Made by a program: the position numbers
Virus record (IMG/VR): IMGVR_UViG_3300029085_000025
DNA: 5,721 nt
Direction: 5' to 3' (one strand)
Origin: a virus
Taxonomy: Duplodnaviria; Heunggongvirae; Uroviricota; Caudoviricetes
Shown: piece by piece, positions 1-3,000 of the stretch
How the letters are laid out: each line of letters opens with the position of its first letter
Numbering within the stretch: position 1 is the first letter of the stretch

Positions 1-3000
1 GGCTGTTGTGGTGGGGTTGTCACTCAGGCGTATGGTCAACCTGACAATCCGGTGTCCTCAACGGGGAAAGAGTAACCCCGCCATACTTACCGCCGCGCCA
101 TTTCGCGGATTACCACAACGCTGAGAGCACTTAGCCAGTTACAACACCACACTTTGTCGCGGCTCCATAAATGCCCTCATCGTTGCACCCTGGTCTCTTC
201 CCAGGCGTCAAACCGAATCGCCACGCTGGTTAGGCGTCTTATCAGCATCCTCATTGACTTGCACATTCCGGCTATCTGGTTTGTTTGCCCGAGCAAGGAG
301 TGGATTGTCCCCTTTAACGTCCCCAGACCGCTAACGACGCATGTGCCATACGCCGTGTTACAACCAAATTTTGTTAGTACCTTGTTTGTAGGTCTGGAGA
401 GAAAGATAAAATGAAGTTGCGCATTATGCAAGTGTTTTATTGCGAGATAAGCAATTTGGTGGGTGATGAAAAGCCACCTTCTGGTGGCTAATTGATGTTG
501 AGGTAGGGGGTTAATTGTGTCGCTTAAGGGTCTGTGACTGACTGATTAAGACCTTTCCAAAGACCATAAACCGGTGTTCGTTTTCGCTGGTAATTCCCCA
601 TTCGCGGTAAATCTGATTATCAGAAATTACCAGCAGTTTATCAGGTATCATTTGCAGTCGTTTGACGTAAATTTTATCATCAAAACCAAATACATATATA
701 CCATCCCCATCAAACTGATTGATACTGATATCAACGAAGATGAGATCTCCTGGCTCAATGGTTGGACACATACTGTCCCCACGAACGTTGATAACTTTAA
801 TGTGATTTGCTGGTCGTCCACCAAACATCGATACAGCATTATCAGTTCTGTATTCAATGGCATGAATCACATCAATGACATCACCGCCCTGGATAAGGCC
901 ATTTCCCGCACTGGCACTGACATCCAGCATTTCAATACGGAATACATCCTTCACCTGCGTAACATCCTCACTAATACTGTTTTTACATACAGTATTACTT
1001 TTGAGGTCTGAGGTAAAGAGATCAGCAATATCAACACCTAAGCTCCTGGCAATATTACTCAGGGCTTGTTCAGTGAATTGTTTCTGCTTACCTGTTTCGA
1101 GGCGCGAGATATTCGCCGCATCCACTCCTATTGCTTCAGCGAGATCGGCGATTTTCATGTTCTTCGCCTGGCGAAGTTGTCTGACTCGATTTCCTATGTT
1201 CATGCGTTTATTACATTTCTTTATTGCGCGTTAAGCAAATCAACTTGCGCAAAATATTTGCGTGAAATAATATGCTCATCACGCAATATGTGGAGGTTAT
1301 ATGCAATCACCATTACGGAATGTGCGTAAGGCGCACGGATTTACTTTGCAGCATGTTGCTGCGGGCGTTCAGGTCAATCCAGCGACGCTGAGTCGTATTG
1401 AAAGACTGGAACAAATTCCATCTATCGATCTTGCAGAACGTCTGGCCAATTTTTTTAAGGGTGAAATCAGCGAAATGCAGATTCTTTATCCGGCACGTTT
1501 TCAATCTAGCCAAAACCAGAATGGGTTTAAACCACAGGAACAGGAGGTAAGCCGTGGGTAAGCATCATTGGAAAGTGGAAAAACAACCTGAGTGGTACGT
1601 GAAAGCTGTCAGAAAAACTATCGCGGCATTGCCTGGGGGTTACGCTGAAGCTGCTGACTGGCTGGATGTAACAGAGAACGCTTTATTCAACCGCCTTCGT
1701 GCAGATGGCGATCAGATTTTCCCGCTGGGATGGGCAATGGTTTTACAGCGCGCGGCTGGCACTCACTACATTGCGGATGCTGTCGCACAATCTGCTGGTG
1801 GGGTGTTCGTATCGCTTCCTGAAATTGAGGAAGTAGAGAACGCCGATATAAACCAGCGCCTGCTGGAAGTCATCGAACAGATCGGGAATTACTCAAGGCA
1901 GATTCGTTCGGCAATCGAAGATGGGGTCGTGGAGCCACACGAGCAGACAGCAATTAATGATGAGTTGTATCTGTCAATTTCGAAGCTCCAGGAGCATGCA
2001 GCACTGGTCTACAAAATCTTTTGCGCTCCAGAAAAGAGTGACGCCCGCGAGTGTGCAGCTCCGGGCGTCGTGGCGTCGATTGCTTCTGGTTGTGGAGAAA
2101 CTAACGCATGAACAGTTTAACGGCAAATAACCGTTTGTCGCAACAGCTGGTGGTCAGCGTCGCTGAACACCTGTTGTTACGGCATGAATGCAGATTACCA
2201 AATCACCTGGCTGTAAGTAACCACAGAGAACTTTACCTGACTGTGGGGGGCGAGTTGTGCAGGAACTTAACCGCTGGTTTCGTGACGGAAGAGGACTTTA
2301 TGTTCATGTTATTCGTTGGGAGCCAGAAACACAGCGCGTTATCTATCTTCGCAAAGACTACCAGCATGAGTGCTTTAGTCCTTTGTGGAAATTCAGGCGT
2401 GATTTTGTTGAGTGTGAAGGACCACCAGCACATTGATTCTGCCATTCCGGGACGTTACACTGTTCAGGCACCTTATAAAGCGGGTGTCGGGATTGGCGTC
2501 CTGGAATTGCATACGGCGACAATTGGCGCGTTAGCGTCTTTTTTGTTGCTACAACTCAGCTATACCCAAATTATGGTGGGCTGGGTGGGGGCACCGAAAG
2601 GTGCGCCGGTTTCCGTATGCGCCGGTTACGCCAACCCTGCTCAGTTCACCACCAGCGAAATTGGCGTTTCCGGTGGTGGAAGTTATCCATTGCATACGGA
2701 GGCTGCCATCATGGCTACGATCCCAACCCTCACTCAACCTGAAATTGCCATCGTTGATGGTCAGGCTGTTACTTCATCCCTGGCTGTTGCCAACTTCTTC
2801 TCCAAACGTCATGACGATGTACTGAAAAAGATCCGCACGCTTGAATGTTCCGCATCATTCACTGCCCGCAATTTTTCGGTGAGTGATTACACCGATTGCA
2901 CAGGCCGCAAACTACCTTGCTATCAAATAACCCGCGACGGCTTTGCGTTTCTTGCTATGGGTTTCACGGGTAAACGTGCTGCCCAGTTCAAAGAGGCATA

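Follow-up and report, generated by a model that had tools for sequence, protein, structure and literature searches.

The lambda genes Rz and Rz1 form an out-of-frame nested phage gene pair in which both products have defined sequences and functions, and the immI region of phage P1 has the architecture c4-icd-ant. In the cryptic prophage e14 of Escherichia coli K-12, ymfM (b1148) is annotated as ‘cell division inhibitor YmfM’ and has been proposed to be SfiC, an annotation that rests on a genomic clone (ymfL′-ymfM-ymfN′), a pBAD24 clone of the ymfM open reading frame (ORF), and a deletion. Here, we analyze a stretch of 5,721 nucleotides from a virus of the Caudoviricetes (IMG/VR virus record IMGVR_UViG_3300029085_000025; hereafter the window, at its full length), in which a 59-codon gene of the DUF4222 family at 2257-2436 lies within a homologue of ymfM and in a different reading frame.

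The best explanation overall, to which we give a probability of about 0.85, is that this DUF4222 gene is nested in an open YmfM frame of an early-right operon. If so, the two would form a conserved nested gene pair in which all that is preserved of one frame is its openness to ‘read-through’. As with Rz/Rz1, the small gene has its own start and sits wholly inside another ORF, in another frame and on the same strand; unlike Rz/Rz1, the outer frame displays only stop avoidance over the overlap. The DUF4222 gene itself is already known and catalogued, and the novelty is confined to its nesting within a frame that is kept open and to the consequence for YmfM/SfiC; no report linking ymfM with an overlapping or nested gene was found in the literature searched, where just five papers name DUF4222. 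Very common E. coli, Salmonella, and Shiga toxin (Stx) prophages carry DUF4222 in their SOS-derepressed early operon, where it is nested in a homologue of the gene credited with the long-sought SfiC division-inhibition phenotype.

Results

A conserved DUF4222 gene occupies the small frame

A first-pass annotation of the window had picked out a 59-codon, GTG-initiated ORF in a frame other than that of the long ORF surrounding it, and this is present as described; the GTG is the earliest possible start after the in-frame upstream stop, the frame being open from 2221. The predicted product matches Pfam DUF4222 (PF13973) at 51 bits (cut-off 27, E 1.1e-13, profile positions 4-51 of 53) and PHROG 1343 (E 4e-36). 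Across the 801 bases compared (window positions 2000-2800), the sequence is 100% identical to that of E. coli S88 and of several other strains, and in S88 a RefSeq coding sequence, WP_071594570.1, has exactly the coordinates of the small ORF. The same stretch is carried by 1041 E. coli genomes, and the small gene is annotated in many of those listed. More widely, tblastn finds DUF4222 in 115 phage records, including mEp460, SfII, SfIV, and many Stx phages, and a scan with DUF4222 peptide patterns yielded 36 loci from Citrobacter, Enterobacter, Kluyvera, Pantoea, Erwinia, Ewingella, Providencia, and other genera. The window gene has the length typical of the family (about 59 residues), matches the profile at full length above the curated cut-off, and shares the family's location in the early-right operon, between a cII-like gene and replication or Rha genes; in many phages the DUF4222 gene is directly upstream of the replication initiator gene.

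Which of the two frames is conserved was a question raised by the first-pass annotation, and the homologues answer it in favor of the small ORF, whose frame and start are preserved in 30 distinct sequences. These share a single start column (ATG in 23, GTG in five, TTG in two) preceded by GGAG-type sequences, and GGAG(G), AAGGAG, or GAGG is present at the site equivalent to window 2245-2250. The window thus has GTG and a G-run where most homologues have ATG and GGAGG, a difference that is not material. The GGGGGG lying six nucleotides before the GTG had been described as a Shine-Dalgarno style common to at least four genes of the operon, in agreement with the G-runs that can be read ahead of the starts at 3253, 4756, 5244, and 5567. 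Folding of 2215-2300, around the start, gave a z-score of +1.0 and no notable RNA structure.

The substitution pattern indicates that the small frame is the one under amino-acid selection. Among the 30 distinct sequences, DUF4222 codons vary at their third position and are conserved at the first two, and all of the differences between the window and K-12 within VIRWEPETQRVIYLR are synonymous in the small frame. The third positions of the small ORF are AT-rich, as had been pointed out (GC content 0.63/0.39/0.37 by codon position, with T at 39% of third positions, versus a third-position GC content (GC3) of 0.62 for the long frame over the same stretch), but the conclusion that the long frame is the more coding-like does not follow: GC content at positions 1 and 2 of the small ORF matches that of ymfL (0.64/0.41), and the comparative data place selection on the small frame. 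AlphaFold2, given a 16-sequence alignment, predicts a five-stranded barrel with a short helix at a mean predicted local distance difference test (pLDDT) value of 85.8. The family match, the RefSeq entry, and the conserved start all bear out the proposal of a separate small gene overlapping a longer frame, and the 2257-2436 ORF is almost certainly a real protein-coding DUF4222 gene.

An antisense ORF (2233-2445, minus strand) was also considered, and rejected as a gene, its openness being as expected from codon content (42% expected). The gene with which the antisense frame is codon-aligned has few Leu and Ser codons, and the antisense frame is open in 83% versus the 42% expected, for mostly trivial reasons.

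The surrounding YmfM frame is open but not constrained over DUF4222

The ORF in the +1 frame relative to DUF4222 begins at an ATG overlapping the ymfL stop (ATGA, 2108-2111), and the same overlap is present in K-12 and most loci. This ORF is a homologue of K-12 ymfM, and both nest an out-of-frame DUF4222 gene; however, K-12 YmfM is 112 codons long and stops shortly ahead of the next gene, whereas the window frame runs for 382 codons and its N-domain is strongly diverged. Comparison of the window N-domain with a 59-member YmfM alignment using hhalign gave a probability of 91% (E 1e-6, 47 columns), and the PHROG 1170 (YmfM) profile aligns to the window tail only, at residues 47-98. YmfM-frame proteins in the protein collection (n = 374) are mostly 108-113 residues long. 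In the commonest YmfM subtype, pairwise differences in the N-domain are in excess at third positions (986/849/1526 by codon position), and N-domain residues 10-55 fold with pLDDT of 92-94; a Pfam search on YmfM proteins returned no family match, and no structural neighbor of the N-domain was found.

Over the overlap, the pairwise differences number 632/2683/990 at YmfM-frame positions 1/2/3, and YmfM-frame position 2 is DUF4222 position 3. At safe four-fold degenerate DUF4222 sites – those unable to make a stop in the +1 frame – all four bases are used, and the AlphaFold2 prediction for a homologous YmfM tail has pLDDT below 50. Judged from these comparisons, there is no amino-acid constraint on the +1 frame over the overlap.

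Stop codons are another matter. The loci were gathered by DUF4222 peptide patterns alone, and therefore carry no ascertainment bias for the +1 frame; in nearly all of them this frame contains no stop between the end of ymfL and a conserved stop codon that precedes the DUF4222 stop by about 20 nucleotides. Across the first 52 codons none of the 30 distinct sequences has a +1-frame stop, whereas resampling synonymous codons from local usage gives an expected stop-free fraction of 5.9%; the +2 frame of DUF4222 fits its expectation, with 3% open versus 2.3% expected. Of 86 ‘risky’ four-fold codons, at which a final purine would make a +1-frame stop, not one has a purine as its last base, versus 44% at safe four-fold sites, and the risky dipeptides (L-N, V-I twice, and others) use pyrimidine-ending codons only, interchanging CTT with CTC and GTT with GTC. 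At harmless columns, CTG is used for 25 of 29 Leu codons (column 31) and GTG for nine of 11 Val codons (column 14). On a neighbor-joining tree all 11 inferred changes at risky sites are from pyrimidine to pyrimidine (P 4.9e-4), and 50% of changes at safe four-fold sites are from pyrimidine to purine. The window, C. braakii, and Stx-phage copies all keep to the stop-avoiding rule; more distant DUF4222 genes do have +1-frame stops, with six in phiNP, three in a Morganella phage, and one each in CharmingMan and LMessi.

These patterns suggest that in the outer frame read-through, rather than sequence, is selected, and we think it probable that the overlapping frame is translated and maintained by selection. 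In the K-12 type, the Shine-Dalgarno sequence of the next gene contains the YmfM-frame stop, an arrangement that would fit translational coupling.

In three loci with more distant DUF4222 genes (around 2483-2670), two of them from Providencia (L036 and L038) and one from Erwinia persicina (L037), there is no upstream YmfM N-domain, yet the +1 frame is open across the entire DUF4222 gene. The frame in L036 and L038 starts at an ATG adjoining or overlapping the stop of the upstream gene, seven nucleotides past the DUF4222 ATG.

In the model that we propose, the operon would be transcribed once the S24-peptidase cI-like repressor is inactivated, a step suggested by the gene order and by the SOS-inducibility of the K-12 homologue. 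A ribosome would bind the G-run and initiate at the GTG to produce a 59-residue predicted SH3/Tudor-like barrel, and the second ORF, from the ATG overlapping the ymfL stop, would be translated through DUF4222; its read-through would yield an unstructured tail or linker, or would deliver ribosomes to the next gene. Because the outer frame is stop-free without amino-acid constraint, we infer that ribosomes translate it and that its read-through matters, and we likewise infer translation of the small frame, the promoter, and the functions of the products. The coordinates of all of these features are shown in Table 1.

Table 1. Features of the window discussed in the text (numbered from its first nucleotide)
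Feature	Coordinates	Strand	Basis or remark
cI-like helix-turn-helix (HTH) and S24-peptidase repressor	511-1203	minus	
cro-like HTH gene	1301-1561		
ymfL (CII/CP76-like)	1554-2111	+	Pfam PF06892, RefSeq annotation; stop overlaps ATG at 2108
382-codon ‘long ORF’, run-on composite (YmfM N-domain, tail, RNA module, rha)	2108-3256	+	
Diverged YmfM-type N-domain, first 50 codons of +1-frame ORF	2108-2256	+	hhalign, alignment
CTGT-N8-ACAG (CTGTAAGTAACCACAG), probable chance match to LexA-box core	2211-2226	no strand	inside coding sequence
G-run Shine-Dalgarno GGGGGG, 6 nucleotides before GTG 2257	2245-2250	+	read from sequence
DUF4222 gene, 59-residue protein, predicted SH3/Tudor-like beta-barrel	2257-2436	+	Pfam, RefSeq, conservation, AlphaFold2
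Tail of YmfM-frame ORF, +1 frame of DUF4222, stop-free, without amino-acid constraint	2257-2455	+	
isrK-like RNA element	2468-2544	+	Rfam RF01394, 58.9 bits (gathering score 50)
Upstream C4 target sites in isrK-like element	a1 2490-2499; b1 2509-2516	+	
Terminator-like hairpin, then T-run to 2544	2525-2538	+	terminator scan
C4-type antisense RNA (P1 c4 / P4 CI family)	2569-2656	+	Rfam RF01695, 80.7 bits (45), full length
Downstream C4 target sites	a2 2661-2673; b2 2692-2700	+	inverted repeats; b2 overlaps rha GGAGG 2697-2701
rha (Rha-family regulator or antirepressor)	2711-3256	+	Pfam Phage_pRha

The 382-codon ORF is a composite that runs on into rha

The long ORF is not a single gene. It passes through two Rfam RNA genes into rha, and is therefore a run-on composite frame. 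The window YmfM frame lacks the canonical stop at about 108-113 residues, and its first stop is at 3256. The canonical stop was removed by a recombination joint inside the 3′ end of DUF4222, where – because of this joint – the window gene ends in FVECEGPPAH and the K-12 type in FREIEVGHEH; with that stop lost, the frame continues through the isrK-like/C4 module into rha, giving the 382 codons. Three proteins (P0238, P0245, and P0252) are mosaics combining a window-type N-domain with a K-12-type tail and its canonical stop, and the recombination joints in these must also lie inside the DUF4222 gene. Variability is low along 117 full-length variants of 382 or 386 residues, a set in which only intact ORFs are sampled.

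The Pfam Phage_pRha domain corresponds to residues 222-307 of the long ORF. An ATG at 2711 lies 20 codons upstream of this domain and is preceded by GGAGG at 2697-2701; the GGAGG-N9-ATG arrangement is conserved across 10 copies, and in PA27 and a Klebsiella phage the annotated antirepressor genes begin just past the RNA module. The ATG at 2711 is thus most likely the rha start. Annotations of identical DNA disagree among RefSeq genomes and phage records: RefSeq variously gives a 382-residue Rha, DUF4222 with Rha from a GTG at 2414, and DUF4222 with an ‘ash family protein’. We suggest that the small gene should be called, and that neither a 382-residue ‘Rha family’ protein nor an ‘ash family protein’ should be called over 2108-2710.

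An isrK-like/C4 RNA module between DUF4222 and rha

The stretch between DUF4222 and rha, with its two RNA elements, is a clean case of an antisense switch of the C4 type; its covariation is specificity-determining, and annotation pipelines have misread the switch as protein. The C4 loop (2612-2620) is complementary to both b sites, and the C4 segment 2622-2637 to both a sites. The loop and both target pairs covary across ten copies (from Stx phages, PA27, the Klebsiella phage, and C. braakii), with 95.5% of cells paired at the downstream sites and 94.4% at the upstream sites; 12 of the 16 downstream pairs have compensatory changes, and there are 12 such pairs in the upstream set too. None of 500 shuffles scored as high, and sliding the partner by one to three columns reduced pairing to 32-43%. 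The annotations of PA27 and the Klebsiella phage leave the module as an intergenic leader ahead of the antirepressor gene, and stops interrupt all three of its frames there; homologous copies of the module also carry insertions/deletions that are not multiples of three. The C4 loop and target sequences covary between phages in the manner of immunity specificities.

The module (2455-2701) resembles the Gifsy-1 IsrK locus, P1/P7 immI, and the P4 CI RNA in having a C4-type RNA, two complementary site pairs, and an isrK-type terminated leader, and – as in the P1/P7 immI type – the second site pair covers the ribosome-binding site of a downstream antirepressor-type gene. Unlike P1, P4, and Gifsy-1, the window module lies in the early-right operon behind DUF4222 and is read through by an open frame. 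A weak promoter-like pair, TTGATT-17 nucleotides-TACACT at 2433-2461 (8/12 matches, under the scan threshold), overlaps the DUF4222 stop and ends seven nucleotides ahead of the isrK match at 2468; it is conserved in the DUF4222-linked copies.

The Pfam Ash profile (PF10554) matches residues 117-212 of the long ORF (window 2456-2743) at 63.5 bits. It also matches an obsolete P4 ‘cI gene product’ ORF at the place where Rfam finds the C4-type CI RNA (phage P4, 8171-8584, minus strand; our locus L054), and both PF10554 ‘Ash’ and the RefSeq ‘ash family protein’ appear to be conceptual translations of a C4/CI RNA gene. A paper on P4-like satellites took PF10554 as the profile for epsilon; we considered Ash as a true antirepressor domain (P4 epsilon) and rejected it, P4 epsilon being PF25738 and PF10554 matching the P4 CI-RNA region.

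Alternative explanations

In some RefSeq genomes and several phage records the long frame alone is annotated, and its GC3 is the higher of the two, as would suit a chance small ORF inside a true 382-residue Rha-family gene. That reading can hardly be sustained against the Pfam and PHROG matches of the small frame, the restriction of amino-acid conservation with synonymous variation to that frame, and a long frame which has no amino-acid constraint over 2257-2436 and then enters a pair of RNA genes, where there are covarying sites and a hairpin resembling a terminator. Alternatively, DUF4222 could be the sole product, the +1 frame over 2257-2436 not being meaningfully translated and owing its openness to ancestry and composition. 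This we consider unlikely: about 6% of sequences would be expected to have the frame open and 30 of 30 do, while the +2 frame fits its expectation; unsafe synonymous codons are never used while safe ones interchange (P 4.9e-4); and upstream lies a conserved N-domain that begins at the ymfL stop and has a confidently predicted fold, with the position of the YmfM-frame stop conserved as well. It does agree with the lack of amino-acid constraint and predicted disorder of the tail, with the stops in distant DUF4222 genes, and with the N-domain of the window lineage, which has no purifying signature. That last point, together with several others, weighs against a DUF4222 gene nested in a translated and selected YmfM frame. 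The window and C. braakii N-domains differ by 7/13/8 substitutions by codon position, such that the +1 frame in the window lineage may be a decaying remnant, and if translated in the window this frame would meet the terminator-like hairpin and the C4 module, which is apparently counter-productive. The stop-avoidance test draws on 11 inferred substitution events in 30 related sequences. As to the small gene, its GTG and G-run are a weaker initiation signal than the ATG and GGAGG of most homologues, and in Phytobacter sp. V91 (L015, 2501-2521) the DUF4222 frame has a stop at codon 7, with the YmfM frame intact (114 codons); this early stop reflects either a pseudogene or a sequencing error.

Two further readings concern the sequence just ahead of the small gene. 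A programmed −1 frameshift could fuse the YmfM N-domain to DUF4222 with no independent start, since G GGG GGC (2245-2251), which includes the G-run, is an X XXY YYZ heptamer when read in the long frame, and the DUF4222 frame is open from well upstream of its GTG. We rejected it as highly improbable: the heptamer is missing in the closest relative (GGGGGAT) and in all other subtypes, whereas a start codon with a Shine-Dalgarno sequence is conserved at the first DUF4222 codon, and a frameshift leaves the openness of the +1 frame downstream of the shift site unexplained. In the other reading, the CTGT-N8-ACAG motif (2211-2226) would act as a weak operator for LexA, and the small gene would be directly SOS-controlled. 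The first-pass annotation was correct as to the exact 4+4 core, which is that of the LexA consensus TACTGT-N8-ACAGTA without the TA flanks or the AT-rich spacer; its identification as a LexA-type box was not upheld. The core is rare, with two copies in the window versus 0.09 expected by chance, and the spacer of the 2211-2226 copy resembles that of the weak polB box. However, a consensus SOS box accounts for the other copy (977-992); finding one more match by chance then has a probability of about 0.09, which makes a second copy unremarkable. The scoring suggested earlier used a LexA position weight matrix built from SOS boxes, and placed the site below every training SOS box: 2209-2228 has 6.3 bits and a heterology-index-like value of 16.5, where the weakest training site has 13.1 bits and 12.0, and two unrelated window positions equal its score. 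The orthologous position in Citrobacter braakii, the closest relative, scores −5.5 bits; no score exceeds 4.4 bits in the 120 nucleotides upstream of the small gene at 41 loci; and, near-identical E. coli copies aside, no locus has the motif at the orthologous position. Scanning of the + strand from 850 to 2500 revealed no promoter-like site, and in the published view e14 ymfM lies outside LexA control. The motif sits in the codons for LAVSNHR, equivalent to the conserved WVxCNHS of the YmfM N-domain. On this sequence evidence it is a chance match inside N-domain codons, and an operator here is very doubtful indeed.

Implications for K-12 ymfM and SfiC

K-12 ymfM has a nested DUF4222 homologue of its own, which is unannotated in MG1655; at our locus L004 it occupies 1002-1181, inside ymfM (823-1161), starts with TTG after an AAGGAG Shine-Dalgarno sequence, and ends 20 nucleotides past the ymfM stop, overlapping the ymfN/oweE start. 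The division inhibition has been reported for K-12 clones only, and those clones also contain the nested DUF4222 ORF; from the coordinates, a clone of the ymfM ORF alone would drop just the last six, non-conserved DUF4222 codons. No frame-specific test (frameshift, stop codon, tag, or western) was found in the ymfM preprint. Because none of the experiments that define ymfM distinguishes between the two frames, the FtsZ-ring inhibitor could be the 59-residue DUF4222 barrel, or could need both products. The nested DUF4222 is far better conserved than the surrounding ymfM, and the C-terminal half of YmfM is without amino-acid constraint. It is thus conceivable, though less likely than not, that SfiC, the SOS-inducible division inhibitor of e14, has been wrongly or incompletely assigned at the protein level to ‘YmfM’.

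Setting of the locus

The window comprises the immunity and early-right region of a lambdoid prophage that resembles e14 and mEp460, with further early genes downstream of the region described here, and e14 has the homologous order ymfK-ymfT-ymfL-ymfM. A consensus-grade LexA box (TACTGTTTTTACATACAGTA, 975-994) scores 25 bits with the same matrix and lies in the linker-coding part of the repressor gene; no promoter-like site adjoins it. Boxes of 23-27 bits are present at this same offset (−1276 to −1306 from the DUF4222 start) in C. braakii (L005), a Buttiauxella metagenome-assembled genome (L014), Shigella flexneri (L017), and Kluyvera (L027). The nucleotides around the ymfL stop and ymfM start (GGAGAAACTAACGCATGAACAGTTTAAC; window 2090-2122) are nearly invariant across genera, occupy the same place in most loci, and are more invariant than the coding sequence on their flanks.

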